From UHGV virus genome UHGV-0109010: a DNA stretch of 41,638 nt; one strand, 5' to 3'. Below the pieces are notes generated by a model. That model had not been told where the DNA came from. It saw only the letters and a program-made list of their open reading frames with translations, and did not search any database. Below, in pieces: positions 952 through 40,230 of the stretch. Origin of the DNA: a virus. Each line of letters opens with the position of its first letter. The stretch's first letter is position 1. The position numbers and the translations under genes are program-made.

Positions 952-966
952 TTACAATTCAATCAG

Positions 967-2130
967 TTACGCCTTCTTTATATCCTCCATAATTCCAGAG
1001 TGGGACATATTTGGGACATTATCACCAAAAATGTCGTCTATTTTCCTCGCATGCTCTGTCAAATGATTAGGCGCAAGGTGAGCATACCTACGAACCATTT
1101 CTATGGACTCCCATCCGCCCATTTCCTGAAGCACTGATAATGGGACGCCTGACTGAATCAGCCAGCTTGCCCAGGTGTGTCTGAGGTCATGGAAACGGAA
1201 ATCTTCAATTCCTGCACGACGACAAGCTGATAGCCATGATGTCTTGCTGTCGATGCGCATCTTCCTGACCGCAGGCGTTGATGTTCCATCTGCTCGCTTA
1301 GCCGCCTTGGTATGTACAAACACCCATTTGTGATGCTTGCCTATTTGATCACGCAACACTTTACAGGCGGTATCGTTCAGCGCCACACCAATGGCGCGGT
1401 TTGATTTGCTCTCTTCTGGATTCACCCAGGCAACTCGTCGCTGCATGTCGATTTGTTGCCATTCCAGATTTATGATGTTCGACTTTCTCAGACCAGTTGC
1501 CAGCGCAAACTTGACGACAGATTTCAGTGGTTCGGGGCACTCATCAATAAGGCGTTTTGCTTCCTCCTTTTCCAGCCATCTGACTCGCTTGTTTCTGACC
1601 GCTGGTATCTTGATGACAGGCGCTTTTTCCAGCCACTTCCAGTCGCGTTCTGCAGCACGGAGAATGGCCTTTATCATGGCAAGATGCTTTGCCTTTGTCT
1701 GAGTTGATACTGGCTTTGGTTCATAAACAGGCAGTTCTTTACCTTTCCTGATGGCGGCCTGAACTTTCTGTTTCCATATTTCTTTCGTCTTTCTGTTATG
1801 CATTCTGCTTACAGCAGAGTAAATCTTTGCCTCCGAGATATCTTTAAGCCTTATACCCTCAAAATGTTCAAGCCAGAACTCAATCCGGCTTTTATCTGAA
1901 TCGAGAGATTTTTTATCAGCTTTTTCCTCAAGCCATCTTAGGCAGGCCTCTTCAAAAGTGACATCAGGTAAATCCCCTAGCTTTTCTACTCGCCAGAGTT
2001 CTGCTTTTCGCTTGTCGTGCAACTCCTGAGCTTGCCGCTTGTCCTTTGTGCCAAGAGATTCCTTAATTCGTTTCCCGCCCGGGAGCGAATACGAGGCATA
2101 CCATATTTCATTTCTGCGGAAGAGTGACAT
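967..2130 (-). CDS. intD: Tyrosine site-specific integrase (DLP12 IntD-like, 387 aa)
   Basis: ORF translation has lambda-family N-terminal arm-binding region and C-terminal catalytic motifs ([15 protein letters not shown]); adjacent to argU as in E. coli K-12 DLP12. Confidence 0.9.
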
Positions 2131-2357
2131 TTTCTTTCCTCTGTTATGCCATCACCCGCGCTCACCTGGACAGTATGCAGCGGAGACTGAAGCGCCGCAA
2201 TGCAGGCTTGCCGTGTTGTGAGGTAAGGAGATTTTGGCTTGGTTGGATCTTTACGTGTTGCCTGTAGGCGGCCTGTTCGTATCCAGTTGGTGGCGGTTGG
2301 TCTGGATATCTTAAGAAACTGACAGGCCTCATCGAGTGTGAGGCTGTATGATTCCAT
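1986..2357 (-). CDS. xisD: Excisionase / AlpA-like HTH DNA-binding protein (start at MESYSL..., SD GAGGT upstream)
   Basis: HTH segment [26 protein letters not shown] typical of phage excisionases; position just upstream of int; ORF unusually extends 145 nt into int. Confidence 0.6.
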
Positions 2358-2607
2358 GGTTACCTCTGCTTTTTGAACGCATGTCACGTAACTTCTTAAT
2401 GTGTTCTGCCGTTTCGATCTCTTCTGCTATCCGATCTGCATCAGCTTTATTCACAGGTTCAAAGTCATGATTAAAGCGGAACATGCTGGCGATACATGTT
2501 CTGCCTTTTCGGATGTAGTGAACTTTGTTGTGGGTAGAACGCAGGATTTTGCAGGGAGTGCCGTGGTGGTCGACGTACCAGGTGTTAGGAAAAATGATTC
2601 TGAACAT
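2329..2607 (-). CDS. Hypothetical early-left protein (92 aa)
   Basis: ORF in early-left operon orientation; no family recognised. Confidence 0.4.
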   Translation of the reverse strand: MFRIIFPNTWYVDHHGTPCKILRSTHNKVHYIRKGRTCIASMFRFNHDFEPVNKADADRIAEEIETAEHIKKLRDMRSKSRGNHGIIQPHTR

Positions 2608-2654
2608 TTTTACACCTCAGTTGGACGATGTTGAAATTTGCTGCTTTGAGGCCA

Positions 2655-2873
2655 TCACAGTCCCCATTGTTTGTTCTTAAGTTCGATCTCCTCCTGGCAA
2701 CTTGCACAAGTCCGACAACCCTGAACAGCCAGGCGTCTTCGCTCAGCTATCGGATCGCCACACTCACAACAATGAGTTGCGGATACAGTCTGGTAGTTCT
2801 GACGACGCATTTTTATTGCTGTATTGCGCTGTAATTCTTCGATTTCTGATGCTGAATCAATGATGTCTGCCAT
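2655..2873 (-). CDS. TraR/DksA-family C4 zinc-finger protein (phage Orf73-like RNAP secondary-channel binder)
   Basis: 72 aa with CxxC...CxxC (CCECGDPI...CRTCASC) zinc finger typical of TraR/DksA family. Confidence 0.7.
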   Translation of the reverse strand: MADIIDSASEIEELQRNTAIKMRRQNYQTVSATHCCECGDPIAERRRLAVQGCRTCASCQEEIELKNKQWGL

Positions 2874-2971
2874 CTTTCATTAATCCCTGAACTGTTGGTT
2901 AATACGCTTGAGGGTGAATGCGAACAATAAAAAAGGAGCCTGTAGCTCCCTGATAATTTTGCTTTTCATGT

Positions 2972-3154
2972 TCATCGTTCCTTAAAGACGCCGTTTAACA
3001 TGCCGATCGCCAGGCTTAAATGAGTTGGTGTGAATCCCATCAGCGTTACCGTTTCGCGGTGCTTCTTCAGTACGCTACGGCAAATGTCATCGACGTTTTT
3101 ATCCGGAAACTGCTGTCTGGCTTTTTTTGATTTCAGAATTAGCCTGACGGGCAA
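2972..3154 (-). CDS. Small hypothetical protein (lambda orf61-position homolog)
   Basis: 60-aa ORF in conserved position relative to exo; recollection of lambda orf61 only approximate. Confidence 0.4.
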   Translation of the reverse strand: MPVRLILKSKKARQQFPDKNVDDICRSVLKKHRETVTLMGFTPTHLSLAIGMLNGVFKER

Positions 3155-3264
3155 TGCTGCGAAGGGCGTTTTCTTGCTGAGGTGTCATTAAACAAGCCCC
3201 ATGTCGGCAAGCATAAGCACACAGAATATGAAGCCCGCTGCCAGAAAAATGCATTCAGTGGTTG

Positions 3265-3456
3265 TCATACCTGGTCTCTCTCATCTGCTTCTGCTTTCGC
3301 CACCATCATTTCCAGCTTTTGTGAAAGGGATGTGGCTAACGTATGAAATTCTTCGTCTGTTTCTACTGGTATTGGCACAAACCTGACTCCAATTTGAGCA
3401 AGGCTATGTGCCATCTCAATACTCGTTCTTAACTCAACAGGAGATGCTTTGTGCAT
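3265..3456 (-). CDS. Small hypothetical protein (lambda orf63-position homolog)
   Basis: 63-aa ORF; position and 28-nt overlap with next ORF mirror lambda orf63/orf60a arrangement. Confidence 0.45.
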   Translation of the reverse strand: MHKASPVELRTSIEMAHSLAQIGVRFVPIPVETDEEFHTLATSLSQKLEMMVAKAEADERDQV

Positions 3457-3617
3457 ACCGCCTCCCGTTTATTATTTATCTTCTCAGCCAGCCGCTGTGC
3501 TTTCAGTGGATTTCTGATAACAGAAAGGCCGGGAAATACCCAGCCTCGCTTTGTAACGGAGTAGACGAAAGTGATCGCGCCTACCCGGATATTATCGTGA
3601 GGATGCGTCATCGCCAT
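3429..3617 (-). CDS. Small hypothetical protein (lambda orf60a-position homolog), overlaps exo stop
   Basis: 62-aa ORF starting 10 nt inside exo 3' end, as in lambda. Confidence 0.45.
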
Positions 3618-4288
3618 TGCTCCCCAAATACAAAACCAATTTCAGCCAGTGCCTCGTCCATTTTTTCGATGAACTCCGGCACCATCTCGTCAAAACTCGC
3701 CATGTACTTTTCATCCCGCTCAACCACGACATAATGCAGTCCTTCACGCTTCATACGCGGGTCATAGTTGGCAAAGTACCAGGCATCTTTTCGTGTCACC
3801 CACATGCTGTACTGCACCTGGGCCATGTAAGCCGACTTTATGGCCTCGAAACCACCGAGCCGGAACTTCATGAAATCCCGGGAGGTAAACGGGCATTTCA
3901 GCTCAAGGCCATTGCCGTCACTGCATAAACCATCGGGAGAGCAGGCGGTGCGCATACTTTCGTCGCGATAGATGATCGGGGATTCAGTAACATTCACGCC
4001 GGAAGTGAATTCAAACAGAGTTCTGGCGTCGTTCTCGTACTGTTTTCCCCATGCCAGCGCCTTAGCATTAACTTCCGGAGCCACACCGGTGCAAACCTCA
4101 GCCAGCAGGGTGTGGAAGTAGGACATTTTCATGTCAGGCCACTTCTTTCCTGAGCGGGGCTTGGCTATCACGTTGTGAACTTCTGAAGCGGTGATGACGC
4201 CGAGCCGTAATTTGTGCCATGCATCATCCCCCTGTTCGACAGCTCTCACGTCGATCCCGGTACGCTGCAGGATAATGTCCGGTGTCAT
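3608..4288 (-). CDS. exo: Lambda Red exonuclease (Exo, Red-alpha), 226 aa
   Basis: Translation [43 protein letters not shown]... is essentially lambda Exo as I recall it. Confidence 0.95.
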
Positions 4289-5070
4289 GCTGCCACCTTC
4301 TGCTCAGTGGCTTTCTGTTTCAGGAAACCAAGAGCTTTCACTGCTTCGGCCTGTGTCAGTTCTGACGATGCGCGAATGTCGCGGCGAAATATCTGGGAAC
4401 AGAGCGGCAATAAGTCGTCATTCCATGTTTTATCCAGGGCGATCAGCAGAGTGTTAATCTCCTGCATGGTTTCATCGTTAACCGGAGTGATGTCGCGTTC
4501 CGGCTGACGTTCTGCAGTGTATGCGGTATTTTCGACAATGCGCTCGGCTTCATCCTTGTCATAGATACCAGCAAATCCGAAGGCGAGACGGGCACACTGA
4601 ATCATGGCTTTATGCCGTAACATCCGTTTGGGATGCGACTGCCACGGCCCCGTGATTTCTCTGCCTTCGCGGGTTTTGAATGGTTCGCGGCGGCATTCAT
4701 CCATCCACTCGGTAACGCAGATCGGATGATTGCGGTCCTTGCGGTAAATCCGGCATGTGCAGGATTCATTGTCCTGCTCAAAGTCCATGCCATCAAACTG
4801 CTGGTTTTCATTGATGATACGGGGCCAGCCATCAACGCCCACCACCGGAACGATGCCGTTCTGCTTGTCAGGGAAGGCGTAAATTTCTTTCGTCCACGGA
4901 TTAAGGCCGTACTGGTTGGCGACGATCAGCAATGCGATGAACTGCGCATCGCTGGCATCACCTTTAAATGCCGTCTGGCGAAGAGTGGTGATCAGTTCCT
5001 GTGGGTCGACAGAATCCATGCCGACGCGTTCAGCCAGCTTCCCAGCCAGCGTTGCGAGTGCTGTACTCAT
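4285..5070 (-). CDS. bet: Lambda Red single-strand annealing protein (Bet, Red-beta), 261 aa
   Basis: Translation [40 protein letters not shown]... matches lambda Bet. Confidence 0.95.
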
Positions 5071-5075
5071 CCGTT

Positions 5076-5372
5076 TTATACCTCTGAATCAATATCAACC
5101 TGGTGGTGAGCAATGGTTTCAACCATGTACCGGATGTGTTCTGCCATGCGCTCCTGAAACTCAACATCGTCATCAAACGCACGGGTAATGGCTTTTTTGC
5201 TGGCCCCGTGGCGTTGTAAATGATCGATGCAGAGTGATTCAAACAGGTGCTGGGGCAGACCTTTTTCCATGTCGTCTGCCAGTTCTGCCTCTTTCTCTTC
5301 ACGGGCGAGCTGCTGGTAGTGACGCGCCCAGCTCTGAGCCTCAAGACGATCCTGAATGTAATAAGCGTTCAT
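5076..5372 (-). CDS. gam: Gam, RecBCD inhibitor (98-aa short form)
   Basis: Translation [44 protein letters not shown]... matches lambda GamS. Confidence 0.93.
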
Positions 5373-5448
5373 GGCTGAACTCCTGAAAATGGCTGTGAAA
5401 ATATCGCCCGCGAAATGCCAGGCTGATTAGGAAAACAGGAAAGGGGGG

Positions 5449-5655
5449 TTAGTGATTCAGGCCGTTACCGCGTCCGTCGAGAAAAACTTCCACGAGCAAA
5501 TCACTGGTATAAGTGCGCTCGATGCCGCGATGCAGATAAAGCCGTCCGCGTAAATTAGCTGATGCAGTCCAGGTACCATCTTTGTGTTTGACCAGCATTC
5601 CTGGCATGACCGCGCCGCGATTAACGGTCTGTGTTCCGTAATGTTGATGAACCAT
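5449..5655 (-). CDS. kil: Kil-family host cell-division inhibitor (68 aa)
   Basis: Motifs HxHxGT, TxSAN and VFLDGRG resemble Rac KilR as recalled; SD GGAG 9 nt upstream; first gene downstream of pL. Confidence 0.55.
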   Translation of the reverse strand: MVHQHYGTQTVNRGAVMPGMLVKHKDGTWTASANLRGRLYLHRGIERTYTSDLLVEVFLDGRGNGLNH

Positions 5656-5931
5656 AAAAACTCCGCCCGTAAGCTGGGCTGCTGAACATATAGAGACTTC
5701 TGCGCATATTCAGGCGGTGGATGGCCGCCGGTTGTCATAACTAAGCCGCCTCGTTGAAGCGACTGAGGTATGAAATGTTGAGTTAATTTCAGCTGGTCAC
5801 ACCGACGTTCACGCGTCCGTTTCACCCCTCGCACTCCCCGAAGCCTGCTGAAATTCAAACTGCGGATCTAAGCGGTCATCGCAACGGTGAATCAGGTAGT
5901 TGCCGTATCGTTGTGTTGTTGCGATGAACTT

Positions 5932-5960
5932 ATTTAAAACTATAGTTGTTTTATCGTCAA
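5932..5960 (-). promoter_or_regulatory. pL-like early leftward promoter (minus strand: -35 TTGACG, 17-nt spacer, -10 TTAAAT)
   Basis: Hexamers read on minus strand; architecture and sequence closely mirror pR (TTGACT-17-TAATCT). Confidence 0.55.
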
Positions 5961-5990
5961 CAACAAAAGTTGTTTTATTGGTTGTTTTAG
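5944..5990. promoter_or_regulatory. OL operator cluster: overlapping GTTGTT/AACAAC inverted repeats
   Basis: Palindromes GTTGTT-N8-AACAAC and AACAAC-AAAA-GTTGTT share half-site with OR (ATGGTTGTT...AACAACCAT). Confidence 0.55.
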
Positions 5991-6099
5991 ATATAACTGG
6001 TTGTATTTAGGATGGATTTATTTTGTGACTTGAATCGCATAGCGATAACTGAAGCGAGGTTATGGTGGTTTTTTTAACGGTGTGTGTGATGAGGGGAGG

Positions 6100-6135
6100 G
6101 CAAAAGAAAACCCGGCACGGTGACCGGGATTCTTA
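6100..6135 (-). terminator. Rho-independent terminator downstream of cI (minus strand)
   Basis: Minus strand reads CCCGG-TCACCGTG-CCGGG followed by TTTTCTTTT. Confidence 0.55.
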
Positions 6136-6249
6136 CGCCGTTAGGTAAAGATATTATTGCGGTGGCTTAATATTACTACCTAGAGCAAAGATAGGAATTA
6201 GTTCTTTACTGAATGAGCACAATGCCCAGTTGATAATTTTTAATTGGTA

Positions 6250-6939
6250 CTACCCATGCTTCCTATATGTCTGCGGCATGCTCCCAATAACCTTACCGAA
6301 GATGAACACCCGGTTCATCTCGTCTTTCTCGATCGGGTCCCACGGTGAGTAGCTTTTGTTATCAGAGATGACCAGCAGCTTATCCTTCATCATTTGCAGG
6401 CGCTTTACATGGGCTGTGTCGTCGTACAGAAACGCATAGATACCATCACCGTCGAAAGATTTAACTGTGATATCAACGAACAGCAGATCACCTGGTTCGA
6501 TCGTTCCTGACATGCTGTCACCACGCACGTTAATGATGCGGATATTTTCCGCCTTCCTACCATCGAACATGTGACGAGCATCGTCAAACGAGTACTCAAC
6601 CGAGCGTAGAACTTCTACAAACTCACGGTTGATGACTCCCGGCCCAGCACTGACTTCTATATCAAGAACGTCAATCTTGAAGTATTTGGAATGGCTGACA
6701 GTTGATTGTATTGGTTGCACTGTACTGTCTGACATATTTCCAACGCCAGAAGATAACCATTCTGCGCGCACACCCAAAGCGTTCGCGATCTCCACGATTT
6801 TAGTTGTTTGATTAGCTTTCCCTGTTTCGATTTTCTGAATAGCAGCCTGGCTAACCCCGACCAAATCCCCAAGCGCCTTTTGTGTAAGGCCTCGCGCTAA
6901 TCTGGCTTCTTTAAGTCTTTCTGAGAGTGTTGTTTTCAT
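6250..6939 (-). CDS. cI: CI-type prophage repressor, XRE HTH + S24 LexA-like autopeptidase (229 aa from MKTTLSERL...)
   Basis: N-terminal HTH (LTQKALGDLVGVSQAAIQKIE), C-terminal S24 motifs (GDSM...KRL); divergent from cro across operator region. Confidence 0.85.
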   Translation of the reverse strand: MKTTLSERLKEARLARGLTQKALGDLVGVSQAAIQKIETGKANQTTKIVEIANALGVRAEWLSSGVGNMSDSTVQPIQSTVSHSKYFKIDVLDIEVSAGPGVINREFVEVLRSVEYSFDDARHMFDGRKAENIRIINVRGDSMSGTIEPGDLLFVDITVKSFDGDGIYAFLYDDTAHVKRLQMMKDKLLVISDNKSYSPWDPIEKDEMNRVFIFGKVIGSMPQTYRKHG

Positions 6940-6980
6940 AGTCCAAATGTACAACCAAGGTTTTATTCCATCAAACGAAA

Positions 6981-7016
6981 ATGGTTGTTGACTAAAAACA
7001 ACCATAGTTTTAATCT
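6981..7016 (+). promoter_or_regulatory. OR operator palindrome ATGGTTGTT-N7-AACAACCAT overlapping pR (-35 TTGACT 6988-6993, -10 TAATCT 7011-7016)
   Basis: Perfect 9-bp inverted repeat overlapping a near-consensus promoter 28 nt upstream of cro ATG. Confidence 0.7.
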
Positions 7017-7043
7017 TGATTCAAATTAACCACGGAGGTTGTT

Positions 7044-7274
7044 ATGAACCCAGCTATCAAAACAGCGATCAATATCGTTGGTTCACAAAAGAAACTGGGC
7101 GCTGCTTGCGAAGTTTCACAGCAGGCCGTCTATAAGTGGCTTCACAACAAAGCAAAGGTATCCCCTGAACATGTCGGCAGCATTGTTACGGCTACTGGTG
7201 GAGTAGTGAAGGCATACCAGATTCGCCCGGATCTTCCGAAGTTGTTTCCACACACCGAAAAGAACGCAGCTTAA
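7044..7274 (+). CDS. cro: Cro-like HTH regulator (YdaS-like family)
   Basis: 76 aa, SD GGAGG, HTH segment (SQQAVYKWLHNKAKVS); first gene from pR divergent to cI. Confidence 0.75.
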   Translation: MNPAIKTAINIVGSQKKLGAACEVSQQAVYKWLHNKAKVSPEHVGSIVTATGGVVKAYQIRPDLPKLFPHTEKNAA

Positions 7275-7343
7275 ATTTCCATTTCACGCTCTTTAACAAT
7301 AAGCAATCAACTTAACAGTCAATTCAAACTAAAGGAGTCAATT

Positions 7344-7883
7344 ATGCAACCACTTCCATACCAACAGACTAGCGGATTTAGCCCGACTGCGGTGATAAAT
7401 CGTTCTCAAACAAAACAGGTGCCAGGCCACGAAAAAATCCGTGATGCCGTCCGCGCCTGGTCGGCTGTAGATAATCAGGATGTCGTTGCCACACTCATTG
7501 TGAATGAGTATCGGGAGCAGGGCGGCGGCACCATCGATTTCCCTGATGATGTCAGCCGTGCACGCCAGAAGCTGTTCCGCTTCCTCGATAACAAATTCGA
7601 TTCTGAAAAATACCGAAATAACGTGCGTGAACTGACCCCGGCAATTCTGGCGGTACTACCGCTGGAATATCGCGGTTACCTGGTTGAGCAGGATAGCTTC
7701 ATGGCCAGGTTGGCTGAAATGGAAAAGGAACTCAGTGAGGCAAAACAGGCTGTCATTCTCAACGCACCACGCCACCAGAAACTGAAGGAAATTAGTGAAG
7801 GTATTGTATCGATGTTTCGTGTGGACCCAGATCTGGCTGGTCCATTGATGGCGATGGTTACTACCATGCTGGGGGCGATATGA
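7344..7883 (+). CDS. YdaT-family protein in the CII position (putative lysis-lysogeny regulator)
   Basis: 179 aa, SD AAGGAG; position between cro and O; resemblance to Rac YdaT recalled, not verified. Confidence 0.45.
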   Translation: MQPLPYQQTSGFSPTAVINRSQTKQVPGHEKIRDAVRAWSAVDNQDVVATLIVNEYREQGGGTIDFPDDVSRARQKLFRFLDNKFDSEKYRNNVRELTPAILAVLPLEYRGYLVEQDSFMARLAEMEKELSEAKQAVILNAPRHQKLKEISEGIVSMFRVDPDLAGPLMAMVTTMLGAI

Positions 7884-7969
7884 CAGGTTCAGAAATGGCG
7901 AAAGCCGGTCTGCTGGAACAGAACCGACTTTCAGGTGCAAATCGTAACACACTCATTGCGGGAGGAATT

Positions 7970-8899
7970 ATGGCAAACACTGCTGAGATATTCAATTTTC
8001 CAGTGCCGGATGCGGCACAAAAGGAGCCGCGCGTGGCAGATCTCGATGATGGTTATACGCGCATTGCAAATGAGTTGCTGGAAGCTGTGATGCTGGCCGG
8101 ATTAACACAGCACCAGCTTCTGGTCTTCCTGGCTGTCATGCGCAAAACATATGGCTTTAATAAAAAACTGGATTGGGTGAGCAACGAGCAACTGTCCGGA
8201 TTGACCGGGATATTACCGCACAAGTGTTCTGCTGCAAAAAGTGTTCTGGTAAAGCGTGGGATTTTGATTCAGAGCGGGCGGAATATCGGTATTAATAATG
8301 TGGTCAGTGAATGGTCAACATTACCCGAATCAGGTAAGAAAAATAAAGTTTACCTGAAAGAGGTAAATTTACCTGAATCAGGTAAGAAAAGTTTACCCAA
8401 ATCAGGTAAAGGCGTTTACCCGAATCAGGTAAACACAAAAGACAAACTAACAAAAGACAATATAAAACCTTTTTCGTCCGAGAATTCTGGCGAATCCTCT
8501 GACCAACCAGAAAACGATCTTCCTGTGGTGAAACCAGATGCTGCAATTCAGAGCGGCAGCAAGTGGGGGACAGCAGAAGACCTGACCGCCGCAGAGTGGA
8601 TGTTTGACATGGTGAAGACCATCGCACCATCAGCCAGAAAACCGAATTTTGCAGGGTGGGCTAACGATATCCGCCTGATGCGTGAACGTGACGGACGTAA
8701 CCACCGCGACATGTGCGTGCTTTTCCGCTGGGCATGCCAGGACAACTTCTGGTCCGGTAACGTGCTAAGTCCGGCCAAACTCCGCGACAAGTGGACCCAA
8801 CTCGAAATCAACCGTAACAAGCAACAGGCAGGCATGATAGCCAGCAAACCAAAACTCGACCTGACAAACACTGACTGGATTTACGGGGTGGATTTATGA
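7970..8899 (+). CDS. O: Replication initiator O (lambda O-like; alternative in-frame start at 7880)
   Basis: N-terminus MANTAEIFNFPV...VADLDDGYTRIANELLEA...TQHQLLVFLAVMRKTYGFNK parallels lambda O; iterons inside gene; GGAGG SD before 7970. Confidence 0.85.
   Translation: MANTAEIFNFPVPDAAQKEPRVADLDDGYTRIANELLEAVMLAGLTQHQLLVFLAVMRKTYGFNKKLDWVSNEQLSGLTGILPHKCSAAKSVLVKRGILIQSGRNIGINNVVSEWSTLPESGKKNKVYLKEVNLPESGKKSLPKSGKGVYPNQVNTKDKLTKDNIKPFSSENSGESSDQPENDLPVVKPDAAIQSGSKWGTAEDLTAAEWMFDMVKTIAPSARKPNFAGWANDIRLMRERDGRNHRDMCVLFRWACQDNFWSGNVLSPAKLRDKWTQLEINRNKQQAGMIASKPKLDLTNTDWIYGVDL
8321..8476. repeat. Origin of replication: five ~18-bp iterons (TTACCYGAATCAGGTAAR) followed by AT-rich region
   Basis: Direct repeats at 8321, 8350, 8368, 8393, 8415 each with internal dyad TTACC...GGTAA, then A-rich tract; same layout as lambda ori within O. 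Confidence 0.8.
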
Positions 8900-9896: not shown

Positions 9897-9963
9897 TGAA
9901 ACAGGTGAGTTGAGTTCAAACTGTAGTACAATTCTCTCCAGTTTGAACAGGAAAGAATATTCT

Positions 9964-10296: not shown

Positions 10297-10327
10297 AAAT
10301 AATTTGTTTCTAAACGACTAAAATATG

Positions 10328-10362
10328 GAGGCTCTTATATTTATATGAGCCTCGTTTTATGC
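10328..10362 (+). terminator. Rho-independent terminator after emrE
   Basis: GAGGCTC-loop-GAGCCTC stem followed by GTTTTATGCTTTTT. Confidence 0.55.
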
Positions 10363-32442: not shown

Positions 32443-32502
32443 TGAAAAATTAATCTGTTAATGAGTCCCACTCCGGTGGGATTTTTTATGTACGGAGTTT
32501 AT

Positions 32503-33831
32503 ATGACGTGGAAAGACAGACTTCAGGACGCGTCATTTCGAGGTGTGCCGTTTAAGGTTGAAGAAGAAAGTGCGGGAACCGGCCGTCGTGTGGAAACACA
32601 CGAATATCCGAACCGCGACAAACCCTATACCGAAGATCTGGGAAAAGTCACTTTCCGCCCGTCCATCACAGCTTATGTGGTGGGAGATGACTGCTTTGAC
32701 CAGCGCGATCGCCTGATTGAAGCGCTGAATAAACCCGGTCCCGGCACGCTTGTCCATCCGACTTACGGTGAGCTGAAAGTCTGTGTTGACGGGGAAGTTC
32801 GGGTCAGCACATCGAAAAGTGAAGGACGTATTGTCCGCTTTGACCTGAAGTTTGTCGAAGCGGGAGAACTCTCTTACCCCACATCAGGTGCGGCGACGGC
32901 GCAGACGCTGATGTCATCCTGTTCTGCACTGGATGACTGCATCAGTGACAGTTTCAGTGGTTTCAGTATCGATGGCGTGGCAGATTTTGTGCAGAACGAC
33001 GTCGTCGGTAATGCCGGCACAATGCTTGGGTATATTTCTGATGCGATGAAAGTGGTGGATTCTGCCGTATCGGATGCCGCCAGGCTGTTGCAGGGGGATA
33101 TCTCGGTACTTCTGCCGCCGCCATCGTCAGGCAAAAATTTCGTTGAGCTGGTGCAGAAAATGTGGCGTACCGGGAAACGCCTTTATGGTAACGCCAGCGA
33201 CCTGGTCACCATGATCAAAACGCTTTCCGGTGTCAGCCTCGGCAGCGATCTGCAACCGCGCGGCGTCTGGAAAACGGACAGTAAAACCACCGCCACGGCG
33301 ACGCAGCAGCGTAACGTGGTTGCCAGCACCCTTCGTACGACCGCAATCAGCGAAGCGGCGTATGCCGTCACCCGATTGCCTGCGCCAACAACTTCCGCGG
33401 TGATGCAGAATGCCGCAGTGGGGCAGGCAACAACACCCGCGCAGAGCACTGGCTGGCCTTCCGTCACGCATCCGGCACTGAACAATGCACCGGCGGTGAA
33501 AAACACGGTTGACCTGCCGACGTGGGAAGAACTGACTGACATTCGCGACACACTGAATACGGCAATTGATAAGGAGTTGTCCCGTACAACCAGCGATGCG
33601 CTGTTTCTGGCGCTGCGCCGGGTGAAAGCAGATCTGAATGCGGATATCAACACGCGCCTTGAACAGTCTGCACGGATCATTCAGCGCACACCGGATGAAG
33701 TTTTACCCGCGCTGGTGCTGGCGGCGACCTGGTTTGATAACGCGGCGCGTGACGCGGACATTATCCGGCGTAATGCCATTACGCATCCCGGCTTTGTGCC
33801 GGTGATCCCTCTGAAGGTGCCAGTGCAATGA
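32503..33831 (+). CDS. DNA circularisation protein N-like (Mu gpN-like) tail/baseplate protein
   Basis: Follows tape measure; SD GGAG; Mu-like order N-P-V-W-J. Confidence 0.7.
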   Translation: MTWKDRLQDASFRGVPFKVEEESAGTGRRVETHEYPNRDKPYTEDLGKVTFRPSITAYVVGDDCFDQRDRLIEALNKPGPGTLVHPTYGELKVCVDGEVRVSTSKSEGRIVRFDLKFVEAGELSYPTSGAATAQTLMSSCSALDDCISDSFSGFSIDGVADFVQNDVVGNAGTMLGYISDAMKVVDSAVSDAARLLQGDISVLLPPPSSGKNFVELVQKMWRTGKRLYGNASDLVTMIKTLSGVSLGSDLQPRGVWKTDSKTTATATQQRNVVASTLRTTAISEAAYAVTRLPAPTTSAVMQNAAVGQATTPAQSTGWPSVTHPALNNAPAVKNTVDLPTWEELTDIRDTLNTAIDKELSRTTSDALFLALRRVKADLNADINTRLEQSARIIQRTPDEVLPALVLAATWFDNAARDADIIRRNAITHPGFVPVIPLKVPVQ

Positions 33832-34907
33832 ACGACAATGTCACGCTACGGGTAAATGGCCGGGAGTGGAATGGCTGGACATCGGTGCGCATCGGTGCCG
33901 GTATTGAACGGCTGGCGCGGGATTTCAGTGTGGAGATCACCCGCCAGTGGCCGGGAGATGAGGGTATCACCACGCTTCAGCCGCGCATTAAAAACGGTTC
34001 AAAAGTGGAAGTGCTGATTGGTGATGAGCTGGTGATCACCGGCTGGGTGGAGGCGACGCCCGTTCGTTACGATTCCCGTTCGGTCAGCACCGGTATTGCC
34101 GGACGTAGTCTGACGGCTGACCTGATTGACTGTGCAGCCGAACCGACACAGTTTAACGGACGCTCGCTGGTGCAGATTGCGCAGGCGCTTGCTGCGCCTT
34201 TCGGCATTGAGGTGGTGAACAGCGGTGCGCCGTCGGGTGTTATTCCTGATGTTCAGCCTGATCACGGTGAAACGGTGATTGAGGTAATCAACAAAATACT
34301 CGGTCAGCAGCAGGCACTGGCTTACGACGACCCGCACGGCAGGCTGGTGATTGGCGGTATTGGCTCAACGCGGGCACATACTGCGCTGGTACTCGGGGAA
34401 AACATCCTTTCCTGCGATACGGAGAAGAGTATCCGGGAGCGGTTTTCTGTTTACCAGGTGGCGGGGCAGCGTGCCGGAAACGACGATGATTTCGGTGAGG
34501 CCACCACCACCGCGCTGCGGGCCCGCACAGAGGACGCATTTATTGCCCGTTACCGTCCGATGTATATCAGGCAGACAGGGCAGGCTACGGGGGCAGGCTG
34601 TATTGCGCGTGCTGACTTTGAAGCCCGGCAACGGGCGGCGCGGACGGATGAAACCACCTATGTGGTGCAGGGCTGGCGACAGGGTAACGGTACGCTGTGG
34701 CAGCCCAACCAGCGGGTGATTGTCTTTGATCCGGTCTGTGGTTTCGACAATACCGAACTGCTTGTTTCGGAAGTCACGTTTACTCAGGACCAGAACGGCA
34801 CCCTGACGGAAATCCGTGTCGGCCCACCTGATGCTTATCTGCCTGAACCCGAAGCCCCCGGCGCGCGGAAAAAGAAAAAAGCCAGAGTACAGGAGGACCC
34901 GTTCTGA
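33828..34907 (+). CDS. Baseplate hub protein (Mu gpP-like)
   Basis: 359 aa, position in Mu-like baseplate block. Confidence 0.75.
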   Translation: MNDNVTLRVNGREWNGWTSVRIGAGIERLARDFSVEITRQWPGDEGITTLQPRIKNGSKVEVLIGDELVITGWVEATPVRYDSRSVSTGIAGRSLTADLIDCAAEPTQFNGRSLVQIAQALAAPFGIEVVNSGAPSGVIPDVQPDHGETVIEVINKILGQQQALAYDDPHGRLVIGGIGSTRAHTALVLGENILSCDTEKSIRERFSVYQVAGQRAGNDDDFGEATTTALRARTEDAFIARYRPMYIRQTGQATGAGCIARADFEARQRAARTDETTYVVQGWRQGNGTLWQPNQRVIVFDPVCGFDNTELLVSEVTFTQDQNGTLTEIRVGPPDAYLPEPEAPGARKKKKARVQEDPF

Positions 34908-35455
34908 TGAGGACGATTGAAGCCATGCAGCGACAACTCCTCGGCCTGATTGGGCGGGCAGTGGTGAAAAGCATCAGTGCCGCCACGAAATGTCAGACCG
35001 TGGATGTGTCCCTGATTGCCGGTGAACCCAAAGCCGGGGTTGAACATCTTGAACCCTACGGTTTTACCGCAAGGGCAAACAGCGGTGCGGAAGCGGTGGT
35101 GTTGTTTCCGGATGGCGACCGTTCTCATGCGGTGGTTGTTACGGTGTCGGACCGGCGCTACCGCCTGAAAGGGCTGCAGACGGGTGAGGTGGCTGTCTAT
35201 GACGATCAGGGGCAGTCTGTGACGCTGACCCGGGAGGGGATCGTGGTGGACGGTGCAGGTAAAACGATCACGTTTCGCAATGCGCCCAGAGCACGTTTTG
35301 AAATGGACCTGGAAGTGACCGGACAGGTGAAAGACCTGTGCGACTCCGGCGGTACCACCATGTCAGCGATGCGGCTTGCCTATAACGGGCATCGTCACAG
35401 AGAGAACGGTCAGGGCAGTAACACCGACAAACCTGATAAAGCGATGGAGGCATGA
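34907..35455 (+). CDS. Baseplate spike / assembly protein V (Mu gp45-like)
   Basis: 182 aa, position. Confidence 0.7.
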   Translation: MRTIEAMQRQLLGLIGRAVVKSISAATKCQTVDVSLIAGEPKAGVEHLEPYGFTARANSGAEAVVLFPDGDRSHAVVVTVSDRRYRLKGLQTGEVAVYDDQGQSVTLTREGIVVDGAGKTITFRNAPRARFEMDLEVTGQVKDLCDSGGTTMSAMRLAYNGHRHRENGQGSNTDKPDKAMEA

Positions 35456-35880
35456 TGGAACTGTGGCTGACGGTGAACGGTAAACGCACCTGCGCCAGCG
35501 CACAGCTGGATCCGCTGACCCGCGCCGTGGTGATTTCCCTGTTTACCTGGCGGCGGGCGGAGCCTGATGACAACGCCGATGTCCCGATGGGATGGTGGGG
35601 GGATACCTGGCCTGCGGTACAGAATGACCGTTACGGCTCCCGACTGTGGCTGCTTCAGCGCAGCAAACTGACCAATCAGCTGGTGCAGACGGTAAGGGGG
35701 TATATCCGCGAATGCCTGCAATGGATGATTGATGACGGCGTGGTGTCCCGTATTGATCTGGATATCCGCCGCACCGGGATTAATGAACTGGGTAACAGTA
35801 TCACTCTCTGGCGTCGTGACGGACCGGTAATGATTTCTTTTGATGATCTGTGGAGTGCGATAACGCATGGCGGACAGTGA
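35452..35880 (+). CDS. Baseplate protein W-like (Mu gp46-like)
   Basis: 142 aa, position. Confidence 0.7.
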   Translation: MMELWLTVNGKRTCASAQLDPLTRAVVISLFTWRRAEPDDNADVPMGWWGDTWPAVQNDRYGSRLWLLQRSKLTNQLVQTVRGYIRECLQWMIDDGVVSRIDLDIRRTGINELGNSITLWRRDGPVMISFDDLWSAITHGGQ

Positions 35881-36925
35881 ATTTCAGCGCCCGACGCTGG
35901 CAGAAAATATCAGTATGCTCCGTAACGATTTATTCGCCAGGCTGGACGTCAGCGACACGCTCCGGCGCATGGATGAAGACGTGCGGGCAAAGGTGTATGC
36001 GGCGGCGCTGCATACGGTTTACGGTTACATCGATTATCTGGCAATGAACATGCTGCCTGACCTGTGCGATGAGTCCTGGCTGGCGCGACATGCTGCGATG
36101 AAACGGTGTCCGCGCAAGGGGGCCACGGCTGCCAGCGGGTATATGCGCTGGGAAGGTGTCAGCGATGGCCTGAAGGTGACCGCCGGGAGTGTTATTCAGC
36201 GCGATGACCTGGTGCAGTACACGACAACTGACGATGCAACCAGCTCCGGTGGTGTCCTGCGCGTGCCGATCACTTGCTCAACTACAGGCGCGGTCGGTAA
36301 CGCTGACGACGGTACGGCATTAATCCTGGTCACGCCGGTGAATGGTCTGCCGTCTTCCGGTGTTGCAGATACCCTGACTGGCGGATTTGATACTGAAGAG
36401 CTGGAAACGTGGCGCGCCCGCGTCATTGAGCGGTATTACTGGACGCCTCAGGGCGGGGCTGACGGGGACTATGTCGTCTGGGCTAAAGAAGTGTCAGGCA
36501 TTACCCGTGCATGGACATACCGCCACTGGATGGGAACGGGGACTGTCGGTGTGATGATTGCCAGCAGTGACCTGATTAATCCCATTCCGGAAGAATCAAC
36601 GGAAACGGCGGCAAGACAACACATTGAGCCACTGGCCCCGGTGGCAGGCTCTGATTTGTATGTATTCAGGCCGGTGGCGCATAAAGTGGATTTTCATATC
36701 CGCGTGACGCCGGACACACCGGAAATACGGGCTGCCATCACCGCGGAGTTGCGTTCGTTCCTGCTGCGTGATGGTTATCCGCAGGGAGAACTGAAGGTAT
36801 CGCGTATCAGTGAGGCGATTTCCGGTGCGAACGGGGAATACAGCCATCAGTTGCTTGCACCGGCAGACAATATCTCCATTGCAAAAAATGAACTGGCGGT
36901 TCTGGGGACGATTTCATGGACGTGA
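35867..36925 (+). CDS. Baseplate J-like protein (Mu gp47-like)
   Basis: 352 aa, position. Confidence 0.75.
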
Positions 36926-37500
36926 CAAACGATGATTACATCCGCCTGTTATCGGCACTGTTGCCGCCCGGTCCTGCATGGTCAGCCAGCGATCCGGCGA
37001 TTGCCGGTGCGGCACCTTCATTAACCCGCGTTCATCAGCGTGCGGATGCCCTGATGCGGGAGCTGGATCCGCGCACCACCACTGAACTGATAAACCGCTG
37101 GGAGCGTCTGTGCGGTCTGCCGGATGAATGTATTCCCGCAGGGACACAGACCCTTCGCCAGCGTCAGCAACGGCTGGATGCGAAGGTTAATCTGGCGGGC
37201 GGCATCAATGAGGATTTTTACCTTGCACAGCTTGCTGCCCTGGGCAGACCAGACGCCACTATCACGCGATACGATAAAAGCACGTTCACCTGCTCATCGG
37301 CCTGTACTGACGCAGTGAATGCGCCGGAATGGCGGTATTACTGGCAGGTCAACATGCCAGCCGCCACCAACACCACCTGGATGACATGTGGCGATCCCTG
37401 TGATTCCGCACTGCGTATCTGGGGCGACACCGTTGTCGAGTGCGTGCTTAACAAACTCTGCCCTTCGCATACCTACGTAATTTTTAAATATCCGGAGTAA
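36916..37500 (+). CDS. Tail protein (Mu gp48-like)
   Basis: 194 aa between baseplate J and tail fibre. Confidence 0.65.
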
Positions 37501-37503
37501 TCC

Positions 37504-38208
37504 ATGCATCGTATAGACACGAAAACCGCGCAGAAGGATAAGTTCGGCGCGGGTAAGAACGGTTTTACCCGTGGTAACCCCCAGACCGGCACACCTGCCA
37601 CCGATCTGGATGATGACTACTTTGACATGTTGCAGGAAGAACTTTGTAGCGTGGTGGAGGCCTCCGGTGCCAGCCTGGAGAAAGGGCGGCATGACCAGAT
37701 GCTTACCGCACTTCGTGCGCTGCTGTTAAGCCGCAAGAATCCGTTTGGCGATATCAAATCGGATGGCACTGTGCAAACGGCTCTCGAAAACCTTAGTTTA
37801 GGAGAAGGCTCAGCATTGCCTGTTGGCGTACCTGTTCCGTGGCCTTCAGTCACACCGCCAACAGGCTGGCTGAAATGCAACGGTGCAGCTTTTTCTGCCG
37901 AAGAGTATCCGGAACTGGCAAAAGTTTATCCGACAAATAAATTGCCAGATTTACGCGGCGAATTCATTCGTGGGTGGGATGATGGAAGAGGAATTGATTC
38001 AGGACGGACTCTCCTGTCTGCTCAGGACGGGAGCATTGAGGCACACGGCCATGATTACAATGGGGCCATCTATACTTCTAGCGGTCCTTCCTGGGCTAAT
38101 ACGACGGATGCGGGACACCGGGCATATTCGGGATTTACATCATCATATGGCGGGAGCGAAACCCGTCCACGAAATATTGCATTTAACTATATCGTGAGGG
38201 CTGCATAA
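37504..38208 (+). CDS. Tail fibre protein (receptor-binding)
   Basis: 234 aa Gly/Ser-rich C-terminal region; followed by tail fibre assembly gene. Confidence 0.7.
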
Positions 38209-38807
38209 TGGATAACGCCGTATTAAATAGCGAGCTTATTGCCACGAAGGCGGGGAATATTACTGTTTATAACTATGATGGTGAGACGCGGGAATATATT
38301 TCTGCATCAACTGAATATCTTGCAGTGGGTGTCGGTATTCCAGCATATTCCTGTTTAGACGCTCCTGGTACATCTAAGGCTGGTTATACAATTTGCCGTT
38401 CTGTGGATTTAAAATCATGGGAATATGTGTCAGACCATCGCGGTGAAATCGTCTATAACACCGAAACGGGAGAATCGAAAGAAATCACAGCTCCGGGTGA
38501 TTATCCTGAAAATACAACCACTATCGCCCCGTTAACGCCATACGATAAATGGGATGGTGAAAAATGGGTGACGGATATCAATGCTCAGCACGTAGCGGAA
38601 GTGGAAGCGGCAGAGCAACAGAAATCTGTGCAGCTTCTGTTCGCAAAGGAAAAGATCATTCTTTGGCAGACTGAATTACAGCTGGGAATTATCAGCGACG
38701 AAGATAAAGAAAAACTAATATCTTGGGTGAACTATATCAAAGCTGTTCAGGCAGTAGATACCCAGAAAGCTCACAATATCATCTGGCCTAAAAAACCATT
38801 CATATAA
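38208..38807 (+). CDS. Tail fibre assembly chaperone (Tfa)
   Basis: 199 aa, position after tail fibre; family assigned from order and size. Confidence 0.75.
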   Translation: MDNAVLNSELIATKAGNITVYNYDGETREYISASTEYLAVGVGIPAYSCLDAPGTSKAGYTICRSVDLKSWEYVSDHRGEIVYNTETGESKEITAPGDYPENTTTIAPLTPYDKWDGEKWVTDINAQHVAEVEAAEQQKSVQLLFAKEKIILWQTELQLGIISDEDKEKLISWVNYIKAVQAVDTQKAHNIIWPKKPFI

Positions 38808-38811
38808 ATAA

Positions 38812-38836
38812 ACGCCCCTTATGGGGCGTATTTTGC
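38812..38836. terminator. Bidirectional rho-independent terminator (ACGCCCC-TTAT-GGGGCGT) shared by tfa and the convergent acyltransferase gene
   Basis: Perfect 7-bp stem flanked by A/T runs on both sides; overlaps the acyltransferase stop codon. Confidence 0.7.
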
Positions 38837-39988
38837 TGCTTGCACGTTATTCTTTGGAAGAATTTTATTTGATAAATAATTGGAAAATTTTATCGCGTTA
38901 TCATCAATTAGCAATTTAAAAATTAAAGCTGCAAGTATTGAAGATAATAAAGTGATTGGGAAAGTAATAAGTAAAGACTTTCCGTATGAAACTCCTGCAT
39001 CACCAAGCTTAATTACGATCAAAGAAGATATTGAAGCTATTAATGGAAAATGCACCAGATAAAGAGAGTATGATACATCTCCAAGAAATTTACAGGTTTT
39101 TGTTTTGAATAAATTTGAGATAACTATTGATTTATCAATTGCTATAATAAGAAACATTGAACCAAAGGCTTGAGAAACAATTCTCAAATCAAAGTAAGTT
39201 ATGTCACTGTTATTTATCCAGATACTATGTTCAGTTATAAAATATGGGTATGAACCTAGGTAACATCCTAGTAAAATAAACATAAAGATAATTGTGGTAT
39301 TAATTTTCTTTATATTAACTGAAACATCTGCACAAATCACCCCTAATATAAATCCTATTAGATGACTTGAGCTAAATACCACAATACCTAAAGTATAAAA
39401 AGCAAACCTAATTCTGGTAGTGCAAACTAGTGGGACCAGAACGAGTACAAGAATTGAGCCAACCAATTCGGTGTGAATGGTCCATAATACTGGGTTTAAT
39501 GTTTGAACTCCGTAAAAATATGTACCAATACCCCCTTCCCATACCGCATTCAGTAATGTCATTGTAGTTGGCATCGCTGGGATTACTTGTGATAAAGAGT
39601 ACACTGCAGTTTCTGATGAATGAAATCCAATCGTTGTCATCAGAATAAAGGAAAATATAGTAGATGCAATGGTAGGTATTGCAAGACGTGGGTATCTCTT
39701 GATAATGGATTTAGAGTACCATTCTAGCCCCTTCCCTTTGAAAAAGGGAATCGATAGAACCATTCCACTCAAAACGAAGAAAAGCATTACGGCAAAGTGA
39801 CCATTATATAATATATTAAATGGAGTTTCACTTATGTATTTCTCTCCATAATGATCTATCTGATTTTGAACAAAAACAGATGGTAGAAAGAATTGCATGA
39901 AATGGCTTATTAAAACTATCAAGCAAGCTATACCACGAATACCATCCAGTGCGTGATCTCGGGAAGGCGTCGTTAATTGTTGAACCAT
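38819..39988 (-). CDS. Acyltransferase family 3 integral membrane protein (O-antigen/LPS O-acetyltransferase-like), start at MVQQL with SD GAGGA
   Basis: Multi-TM protein with N-terminal LDGIRGIACLIVLISHF motif typical of acyltransferase-3 (Oac-like); very AT-rich; convergent at prophage right end. Confidence 0.8.
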   Translation of the reverse strand: MVQQLTTPSRDHALDGIRGIACLIVLISHFMQFFLPSVFVQNQIDHYGEKYISETPFNILYNGHFAVMLFFVLSGMVLSIPFFKGKGLEWYSKSIIKRYPRLAIPTIASTIFSFILMTTIGFHSSETAVYSLSQVIPAMPTTMTLLNAVWEGGIGTYFYGVQTLNPVLWTIHTELVGSILVLVLVPLVCTTRIRFAFYTLGIVVFSSSHLIGFILGVICADVSVNIKKINTTIIFMFILLGCYLGSYPYFITEHSIWINNSDITYFDLRIVSQAFGSMFLIIAIDKSIVISNLFKTKTCKFLGDVSYSLYLVHFPLIASISSLIVIKLGDAGVSYGKSLLITFPITLLSSILAALIFKLLIDDNAIKFSNYLSNKILPKNNVQAAKYAP

Positions 39989-40230
39989 CAATTCCTCACA
40001 CATTGTAATAAAGTATTAAAATAAAATAGTAAAAGCAGAATATACAAATACGAAAAGCGGAATTATACTTTACAAGAGTGCTTGATGCTATTGTTTTGTC
40101 GAGATTTATAATCTGATCTTCTGTAGATGTTGTCCTGGCATTGTCCAATCATGATCTATGGGCTGGCTGGCGAACTTTCGATAGTGCGAGTATTGAATGA
40201 TTTCCAGCCGTTACCGATTTTACGTGTTAA

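Follow-up and report, generated by a model that had tools for sequence, protein, structure and literature searches.

The two halves of the locus

The stretch of DNA analysed here (UHGV virus genome UHGV-0109010, 41,638 nucleotides; hereafter the window) is, judged from its sequence, a composite of two prophages. The left half of a lambda-like, DLP12-family prophage at argU (arm A, 952 to ~19720) carries attL, int, xis, Red, immunity, O/P, nin, Q, and lysis genes. Arm B (~20298 to 41638) comes from an SfV-like myovirus prophage otherwise located at dusA, of which it is the right half; it carries an HNH-cos-terminase unit, head genes of the HK97 family, contractile-tail genes of the Mu type, an acyltransferase gene, dinI, and a dusA-type integrase gene.

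The left end of the window coincides exactly with the stop codon of the host gene fimZ (1 to 633, minus strand; 100% identical to K-12 fimZ, RefSeq annotation of L001/L003). It is followed by the plus-strand tRNA-Arg(TCT) gene argU (875 to 953; ARAGORN 875 to 951), with the 47-bp att core of the argU prophage at its 3′ end (attL, 907 to 953). In AP022098, this core repeats as attR between envY and ompT, 47 kb away and beyond ompT. No second copy of the argU core lies within the window and attR is therefore absent, so that of the two sites that would bracket a complete, excisable argU prophage, attL alone was found. The minus-strand tyrosine integrase gene adjoining attL encodes IntD (967 to 2130; 100% amino acid identity to DLP12 IntD and 73% to SfV Int). 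An intact open reading frame (ORF) next to it (1986 to 2357, minus strand, with its ATG at 2357) is the excisionase candidate, its product matching the annotated Xis of SfV at 79% over 116 residues; a shorter 56-residue ORF at this place has no PHROG match, and the PGAP annotation records only a 66-bp HTH fragment here. By homology, then, a putative cognate pair of integrase and excisionase adjoins attL.

Arm A: early genes, cargo, and lysis

The exo, bet, gam, and kil genes (3608 to 5655, minus strand) encode proteins with 99% identity to lambda Exo, Bet, and Gam, and a Kil that matches phrog_294 (E=2e-37). Next come, by their PHROGs (phrog_4/6201, phrog_35, and phrog_163), a CI-like S24 repressor (minus strand), a Cro-like protein (plus strand), and a CII-like/YdaT protein (plus strand), which make up the immunity region (6250 to 7883). 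The O-like, P, and ren genes (7880 to 9896, plus strand) are 66%, 98%, and 91% identical to their lambda counterparts at the protein level, Ren matching phrog_142. Inside the O-like gene are three 22-nt iterons (8321 to 8437; repeat family D1). The divergent CI/Cro pair, the gene in the CII position, and O/P with iterons together reproduce the lambdoid early layout. An N-type antiterminator gene, expected between pL and the Red genes, was not recognised: no ORF in 5457 to 6250 has any PHROG match. A missing N gene as a sign of a defect was considered and dropped, because positions 5400 to 7300 are 99.5 to 99.8% identical to the isolated, plaque-forming phages Turner and PhiR34_1.

The DLP12-type cargo and nin region (9964 to 15387, plus strand; RefSeq annotation) comprises emrE, ylcJ (frameshifted), the ybcK serine recombinase gene, ybcN, ninE, ybcO, rusA, ylcG, and the Q antiterminator gene. 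The products of ybcN, ninE, ybcO, rusA, and ylcG are 96 to 100% identical to those of DLP12, while Q (15010 to 15387), upstream of essD/rrrD/Rz at 18490 to 19666, is 88% identical to DLP12 QuuD. Low-GC cargo (15543 to 18302; GC 0.33 to 0.44, RefSeq annotation) fills the space from Q to the lysis genes and encodes a lipocalin (minus strand), YbgA, and an AraC-type HTH protein. The plus-strand lysis cassette (essD, rrrD, Rz/Rz1, and orf50; 18490 to 19806) is 98 to 99% identical to DLP12 in EssD and RrrD, and A-type sequence stops at 19720, within the lysis/orf50 span. These identities bear out the first-pass annotation, which had called exo, bet, gam, P, and ren essentially lambda-like (98 to 99% for the first four, 91% for Ren) and int, nin, and Q similar to DLP12 (100%, 96 to 100%, and 88%).

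Arm B: virion module, cargo, and a second integrase

The packaging module of arm B (20417 to 23125, plus strand; 94 to 99% identity to SfV) encodes an HNH endonuclease (PF01844), a P27-family TerS (PF05119), and TerL (PF03354). Alignment of the SfV genome ends, which abut between 20825 and 20826, places cos in this module. The head and neck genes follow (23273 to 28360, plus strand; 97 to 100% to SfV): portal (PF04860), S78 prohead protease (PF04586), major capsid protein (PF05065), connector, head closure, neck, tail terminator, and DUF2635. The order of portal, S78 protease, and predicted HK97-fold capsid, with no separate scaffold gene, is of the HK97 type; the head Pfam assignments are precomputed hits on identical proteins. 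The earlier designation of the head as HK97-type thus holds at the family level, whereas HK97 itself is distant (TerL 26%, portal 27%, and no tblastn hit for the capsid).

The contractile tail genes (28344 to 38807, plus strand; Pfam) encode sheath, tube, chaperone, tape measure, baseplate proteins of the Mu N/P/gp45/gp46/gp47/gp48 type, tail fibre, and tail-fibre assembly protein (Tfa). Apart from the fibre and Tfa, they are 98 to 100% identical to SfV. The counterparts of Mu gp38, L (sheath), N (gp43), P (gp44), gp45, gp46, gp47, and gp48 occur in this order, collinear with Mu gp38-gp48 at 30 to 45% identity and with the Pfam families Phage_Mu_Gp45, GP46, Baseplate_J, and Phage_Mu_Gp48 in the baseplate; the tube protein gives no tblastn hit to Mu. 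The proposal that the virion module is of a different lineage (94 to 100% to SfV) with a Mu-like baseplate order is in agreement with these data. A myovirus particle is likewise expected from the genes, since electron microscopy shows contractile tails in SfV, SfII, and SfIV, which have the same virion module (PMC3851460).

Downstream, a minus-strand cargo cassette (38819 to 40479) encodes an O-antigen-type acyltransferase (38819 to 40003; phrog_3333 O-acetyltransferase, Pfam Acyl_transf_3) and a DinI-like protein (40231 to 40479; Pfam DinI). The acyltransferase-dinI cassette is also found on unrelated tail modules. The element had been bounded at 952 and 40230; the left end is a true attL, but 40230 is not an att site and arm B continues to 41638. 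There the window ends exactly at the ATG of a second tyrosine integrase gene (40541 to 41638, minus strand), whose product is of the dusA-associated type and only 22 to 23% identical to the SfV and DLP12 integrases. In AP022098, and in each contig that shows the flank, this same integrase gene lies directly against dusA. In elements with dusA-specific integrases, the integrase gene directly adjoins the 5′ end of dusA, 21-bp consensus attL/attR repeats lie in dusA, and the element supplies a replacement 5′ end (Farrugia et al. 2015, PMC4482086). Because attL at argU and the att site on the dusA side are non-cognate, neither integrase could excise the unit.

Two parents and a third-parent patch at the junction

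Positions 1 to 19720 match the argU prophage of AP022098 without a mismatch, and so do positions 20298 to 41638 with the SfV-like prophage at dusA in the same genome, where the two parents are separate, 0.98 Mb apart and in direct orientation. Five complete genomes carry both arms at 99.8 to 99.9% identity, 0.92 to 0.98 Mb apart and on the same strand. No internal stop was found in any listed ORF of the window. Comparison with lambda, DLP12, SfV, and phiP27 yields the gene content that had been described. What is not supported is the reading of this content as a single element at the DLP12 site that is gene-complete and possibly inducible: attR is absent, a non-cognate integrase stands at the far end, and the arms are base for base those of two separate complete prophages. 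That the window represents one complete and inducible phage is improbable. The contrast drawn with the defective K-12 DLP12 is also less striking, as the intact ST131-type argU prophage is already gene-complete, with lambda-type virion genes.

Between the arms, a SNP map delimits a patch of ~0.65 kb (19717 to 20367, plus strand) of the type found in a P22-like prophage (parent C). It differs from prophage C of MS14385 by four mismatches, and a 416-bp segment of it (19830 to 20245) is absent from the native prophages of both arms. A small ORF in the patch (56/61 amino acids, 20033/20048 to 20218) lies in a P22-like context in 10 of 10 and 8 of 10 of the places shown. The switches between parents fall inside identities of 133 bp and 70 bp, the latter being the C-to-B switch (20298 to 20367), and the join as a whole sits in a ~1.2-kb Rz-to-HNH stretch common to co-resident lambdoid prophages. 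The value of the patch as a specific P22-like marker is weakened by the natural HNH/P27 prophages L027 and L028, in which the first 190 bp of the patch precede HNH.

The junction was found in one short-read SPAdes contig (ERZ1303798 NODE_6; 348 kb, 21x coverage), which runs through it unbroken at mid-contig. It was found at coverage of at least 80% in none of 5,426 complete E. coli genomes, nor with exact 100-mer and gapped probes in IMG/VR, JGI metagenomes, or GTDB representatives; the combination of arms A and B is likewise absent from 50,697 phage records and IMG/VR. Two other short-read or metagenome contigs show hybrid joins in the same stretch, L038 with an A-to-B switch at ~19494 to 19602 and L053 with a C-to-B switch at 20298 to 20367; L054, the sibling of L053, is normal.

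Origin of the join

The join may be an assembly chimera. We give roughly even odds, with if anything a slight lean in favour, to the reading that the assembler joined the argU and dusA prophages at the contig level. The path through the assembly graph would have taken wrong turns at the 133-bp and 70-bp repeats common to three prophages of one polylysogenic ST131-type strain, thereby linking the argU and dusA loci in silico. The zero-mismatch arms and their separation in the five complete genomes are consistent with this, as are the native surroundings of each arm: arm A continues to lambda-type virion genes, then appY-ompT, and then the 47-bp attR that the window lacks, while the native prophage of arm B has a left half with a separate set of repressor, replication, Q, and lysis genes. 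The restriction of the junction to a single SPAdes contig, the other hybrid joins in L038 and L053, and the presence of dusA at each visible right flank of the integrase point the same way. Moreover, map positions, direct orientation, and location on one replichore imply that a fimZ-A-B-dusA join would close a 0.94-Mb arc that lacks oriC. However, the assembler did not break at the junction, and the 70-bp exact repeat is shorter than both k=77 and 150-bp reads, so that a C-to-B mis-join requires short reads, a small k, or coverage gaps. In addition, the C-to-B interval recurs in L053, an unrelated assembly, as a recombination hot spot would, and arm A encodes lambda Red (99%), a type of recombinase that generates short-homology mosaic phages (PMC3945230).

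These latter points lend weight to a private in vivo recombinant, an origin that we regard as a serious contender at somewhat below even chances. More specifically, and a little more tentatively, the window could be a physical, very recent recombinant of three parents (argU lambdoid, P22-like, and SfV-like) formed in one polylysogenic ST131-type cell. Phage recombinases would have exchanged DNA at the 70- to 133-bp linker identities of the lysis/packaging boundary, leaving either one prophage nested in another or a viable hybrid phage with two integrases. Such a hybrid would exchange the siphovirus particle of lambda for the myovirus particle of SfV with no change of immunity or attachment site, and the window would be a snapshot of modular exchange with three parents identifiable at 100% identity. 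If such a molecule exists, Q-dependent late transcription starting in arm A would presumably pass the lysis genes and run on into the virion genes of arm B.

The nested form is unlikely. It would arise from one recombination event, via the Rz/orf50 homology, between the argU prophage already in place and a circular SfV-like phage genome that had the patch before HNH, giving argU-A.left-[patch-B.right-int-attP-B.left-lysis]-A.right-attR, of which the window would be the first 41 kb. Homologous recombination could then release the nested phage, and Int/Xis of arm A the whole unit. One crossover within the 761 bp that A and B share, their sole common stretch, gives exactly this left junction and a topologically viable product. 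The long unbroken contig, the natural HNH/P27 prophages with a piece of the patch before HNH, and the Red-type recombinases of arm A fit as well. Nevertheless, several dozen contigs yielded neither a B-type prophage carrying the whole patch nor an integrase followed by anything but dusA, and either junction occurs in 0/5,426 complete genomes.

A true single hybrid phage at argU, gene-complete and inducible, with attR just beyond the window and the dusA-type integrase as a passenger, appears improbable. The intact ORFs, the Xis candidate, cos, and the near identity of the immunity region to plaque-forming phages (see above) would suit it, and the argU-to-integrase distance of 40.7 kb falls within the range of SfV-type genomes (37 to 43.5 kb). 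Lysis genes of the essD/rrrD type adjoining HNH/P27 packaging genes also occur naturally in L024. Against this, there is no A/B homology to close the circle at the right end, the combination has no counterpart in the phage records or IMG/VR, and the 100% identity of both arms to two co-resident prophages implies a very recent event instead of an established lineage.

The same low probability applies to a join that arose when the chromosome itself was rearranged, whether by a tandem duplication of ~0.95 Mb between the prophages, with the join as its novel joint, or by translocation in several steps. With A and B in direct orientation on one replichore, the joint is the expected duplication junction, and slight indications suggest that the right flank is probably dusA; but the joint is absent from complete genomes, and a duplication would give two copies of both arms, which should break a short-read contig, yet NODE_6 runs through. 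Megabase duplications are also unstable. Other routes were excluded: an inversion by the direct orientation on the same replichore in 5/5 complete genomes carrying both arms; a clean, double-crossover module swap because the 761-bp stretch is the sole A/B homology and offers no second crossover site; and a simple A x B crossover or mis-join at one shared repeat because the 416-bp segment occurs in neither parent and the SNPs on either side of it are those of a third prophage, which is P22-like.

Implications

If the join is an artefact, short-read prophage calls in polylysogens may fuse halves of different prophages at the conserved Rz-to-terminase boundary and pass as novel mosaics; a fast safeguard is to look for matching att sites and for one cognate integrase only. 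If it is real, it is a well-resolved case of the already demonstrated exchange of virion modules via short conserved boundary sequences, one that would alter particle type and host range and carry an O-antigen acetyltransferase, with immunity unchanged. In neither case is a new kind of system revealed.

Comparison with known systems

The early region has the gene order of lambda, but O is only 66% identical, the immunity genes differ (CI/Cro unrelated to those of lambda and a YdaT-type CII), no N homologue is recognised, and Q and the lysis genes are of the DLP12 type. Isolated lambdoid phages include Turner, IdasGreatGrand, and PhiR34_1 (PV340559); the last has 59% of positions 952 to 25000 in common with the window at 97.7% identity, integrase included. 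The attachment site and 47-bp core are those of K-12 DLP12 and of the intact argU prophage in ECONIH1, AP022098, and MS14385. Although emrE, ybcK, the nin genes, essD, and rrrD are 96 to 100% identical to DLP12, the K-12 element has IS insertions and lacks the Red, immunity, and replication genes that the window carries. The ST131-type argU prophage continues into lambda-type Nu1/A/portal/E/V/H/J and then appY-ompT-attR, whereas the window continues into SfV-type genes with no attR.

The Stx2e phage phiP27 (NC_003356) has the same HNH-cos-P27 TerS-TerL order and the same tail and baseplate order. Its virion proteins are 24 to 82% identical where matched (HNH 81%, TerL 77%, sheath 82%, tube 81%), but similarity is low in the head (portal 28%, capsid 26%) and the early region, integrase, and stx2e cargo differ.

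The closest relative of the virion module is SfV (NC_003444): positions 20826 to 37807 are collinear with SfV 1 to 16974 at 97.7% nucleotide identity (~17 kb). The tail fibre, in contrast, is 73% identical over 59% of the protein and tfa has no hit; in place of the gtrABV serotype-conversion cassette the window, which has no gtr genes, carries the acyltransferase-dinI cassette, and SfV Int is of the thrW type, the right-end integrase of the dusA type (22% to SfV Int). The early half as a whole is not SfV-like: among the repressor/Cro, replication, Q, and lysis genes, no SfV match was found beyond partial ones to cI (41%) and RusA (37%). The HNH-cos-TerS layout, HK97-family head, and Mu-type contractile tail of the window are those of SfV and its relatives SfI, SfII, SfIV, SKA5, and vB_EcoM-689R6; the organisation of this family is lambdoid, and electron microscopy shows myovirus particles (PMC3851460). 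Mosaicism of the lambda/HK97/Mu kind seen in SfV has been described since 2002 (Allison et al. 2002 J Bacteriol 184:1974, as cited in PMC3851460).

Two prophages in one window

The window joins the left half of a DLP12-family lambda-like prophage at argU (arm A) to the right half of an SfV-like myovirus prophage otherwise found at dusA (arm B). In a search of 5,426 complete E. coli genomes, an argU prophage matched window 1-20346 at 99.9% identity and a different prophage matched 19199-41638 at 99.8%. Both arms occur at these identities in five genomes (AP022098, CP103468, CM169490, LR890334, and LR130555), and in all five the matches share a strand and are separated by 0.92-0.98 Mb. At base level, there are zero mismatches between window 1-19720 and parent A or between 20298-41638 and parent B, and the only homology between A and B is one 761-bp stretch. 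Past its lysis genes, parent A in AP022098 carries lambda-type nohD, terminase, portal, capsid, and tail genes, then appY and ompT, and it terminates between ompT and envY, where 47 bp of the argU 3′ end are repeated. Parent B in this genome has a repressor, replication genes, Q, and a lysis cassette of its own, and its integrase abuts dusA, the arrangement described for dusA-specific integrases (PMC4482086).

The window opens with the stop codon of fimZ, a host gene on the minus strand (1-633), which is followed by argU, encoding tRNA-Arg(TCT) (875-951). Arm A then runs through the IntD integrase, a Xis candidate, Red exo/bet/gam, kil, a CI/Cro/CII-like immunity region, O, P, and ren, and onward through emrE, ybcK, the nin genes, Q, low-GC cargo, and the essD/rrrD/Rz lysis genes. 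Beyond these lie HNH, P27-type TerS, TerL, portal, S78 protease, capsid, and neck proteins, then sheath, tube, tape measure, Mu-type baseplate, fibre, and tfa. An acyltransferase, dinI, and a second integrase (40541-41638), all on the minus strand, occupy the right end, where the window stops at the integrase start codon. Both ends (1 and 41638) thus coincide exactly with gene ends, and the window was therefore cut at gene boundaries. This suggests that it came from an annotated or provirus-called region in which the next gene rightward was treated as host.

The first-pass annotation had read 952-40230 as a single bounded prophage. However, the argU att core occurs only once in the window, and hence 40230 is not a prophage end. 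The dinI and integrase genes beyond it belong to the SfV-like genome, because phage SKA5 matches to the window's last base; in every contig with a visible right flank, the integrase is followed by dusA-pspG-qor-dnaB. The window combines one element's attL with another's integrase end, two sites that are non-cognate. With no attR and with arms identical to two distinct prophages, neither the proposed boundaries nor the single-element reading was confirmed.

A P22-like patch at the junction

The arms are separated by a 0.65-kb patch, which includes 416 bp (19830-20245) absent from both A and B and encodes a 56/61-aa ORF. It differs by 4 mismatches from a P22-like prophage (parent C) at sbcB in the ST131-type genome MS14385, which holds A and B as well. 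The A-to-C switch falls within ≤133 bp of identity (19588-19720) and the C-to-B switch within 70 bp (20298-20367). The usual neighbours downstream of the patch ORF in public assemblies are DUF2560 and a P22-type terminase. Mosaic joins are known to be frequent at the Rz-to-terminase boundary, where the single 761-bp homology between A and B lies. Since the first 190 bp of the patch are also found upstream of HNH in natural HNH/P27 prophages, and since an essD/rrrD-type lysis cassette adjoins HNH/TerS in a natural locus (L024), this class of join is ordinary.

The exact junction was absent at at least 80% coverage from all complete genomes, and absent from 50,697 phage records and from IMG/VR, JGI metagenomes, and GTDB representatives. 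It was found only in ENA ERZ1303798 NODE_6, a 347,886-bp SPAdes contig with 21x coverage that matches window 17448-29699 at 100.000% identity and from which the window probably derives. Within the same 1.2 kb, two further contigs of short-read or metagenome origin show hybrid joins that differ from this one. One (L038) switches from A to B at ~19494-19602 without the patch. The other (L053; GCA_030475925.1, JASZKX010000007.1) joins a P22-like left arm to an SfV-like packaging/virion arm, with its C-to-B switch in the same 70 bp as the window; its sibling assembly (L054; GCA_030475965.1) is normal and keeps the P22-type terminase. In MS14385, the P22-like and SfV-like prophages are inverted relative to each other on opposite replichores, so that a real inversion would be viable for the L053-type join, unlike that in the window.

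Origin of the join

Because A and B lie on one replichore as direct repeats, a physical fimZ-argU-A.left-B.right-int-dusA join would correspond to the joint of a ~0.95-Mb duplication or an oriC-less circle, and the same map positions mean that it would not be a deletion or inversion. This map logic, the absence of the junction from long-read genomes, and the varied hybrid joins in short-read polylysogen assemblies make a contig-level chimera the single most likely reading, with about an even chance of being correct. Against it, NODE_6 runs unbroken through the junction, usual k-mers and reads exceed the 70-bp repeat in length, and the C-to-B switch interval recurs independently. Moreover, arm A encodes lambda Red, a recombinase type shown to make such mosaics (PMC3945230). 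Taken together, the alternatives in which the join is real are a serious possibility, if somewhat short of even. Among them, it is unlikely that a circular SfV-like genome became nested within the argU prophage through one homologous crossover. It is improbable that the element is a genuine hybrid phage with two integrases whose attR lies outside the window, and equally improbable that the join marks a duplication or translocation.

Gene completeness and lytic functions

The essential genes are intact: none of the listed ORFs contains an internal stop, and PGAP-flagged defects are limited to accessory genes. The Xis candidate (ATG at 2357) shares 79% identity with SfV Xis, and cos maps to 20825/20826. 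No N homologue was found, and the interval from kil to the repressor gene (5656-6250) has no recognizable N-type antiterminator. The kil-cI-cro region is, however, 99.5-99.8% identical to those of Turner and PhiR34_1, two phages that form plaques and have the same arrangement. Early antitermination in this phage group may therefore use a different mechanism or an unrecognized small protein or RNA. Lytic gene expression would be plausible if the join is physical. Of the earlier proposal that the element appears gene-complete and may be inducible, the intactness of the essential genes stands, while excision as a unit, given the non-cognate ends, is not supported by the sequence in hand.

RefSeq annotation of identical sequence marks a 72-bp piece of a capsid gene (40163-40234) lying between acyltransferase and dinI, a frameshifted ZapA-like gene (2972-3188), and a frameshifted ylcJ (10345-10495), all of which are accessory remnants. 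The tfa-acyltransferase(-dinI) cassette (38208-40479) also ends unrelated tail modules elsewhere on the chromosome, whose baseplates are P2-like or of other myovirus types (loci L041, L042, L043, and L045), and the tail-fibre-assembly protein there is identical. Its behaviour is that of a mobile cassette for host range and O-antigen modification.

Relation to known phages

Every window protein was compared with those of lambda, K-12 DLP12, SfV, phiP27, Mu, and HK97. Lambda-like early genes had been proposed, and amino acid identity to lambda is 99% for Exo/Bet/Gam, 98% for P, and 91% for the Ren-like protein, but only 66% for O. Within the O-like gene, three 22-nt iterons (8321-8437) form direct repeats with 47-48 bp spacing at the expected place of lambda-type origin iterons, whereas the lambda origin has four 18-bp iterons. 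The DLP12 likeness of int, nin, and Q is borne out by identities of 100% for Int, 96-100% for ybcN/ninE/ybcO/rusA/ylcG, and 88% for Q, with 98-99% for essD/rrrD. Two low-GC cargo islands (GC 0.33-0.44) interrupt this arm. One (9964-12079) holds emrE and the serine recombinase gene ybcK, which separate ren from the nin genes as they do in DLP12. The other (15543-18302) lies between Q and the lysis genes and encodes lipocalin, YbgA, and an AraC-type regulator; nmpC takes this place in K-12 DLP12.

The proteins for packaging, head, and tail share 94-100% identity with those of SfV (DNA match 97.7% over 17 kb) and, where a match was found, 24-82% with those of phiP27. The tail and baseplate proteins are 30-45% identical to, and collinear with, Mu gp38-gp48, while likeness to HK97 itself is at the family level only (TerL 26%, portal 27%; Pfam PF04860, PF04586, PF05065). 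A different, myovirus-type lineage for these modules agrees with these values, and the first-pass description of the modules is correct on protein comparison. SfV and its relatives are myoviruses by electron microscopy (PMC3851460), and the same source, citing Allison et al. 2002, describes for them a mosaic of lambda organization, HK97-family head, and Mu-type tail. Both arms and this type of mosaic are already known.
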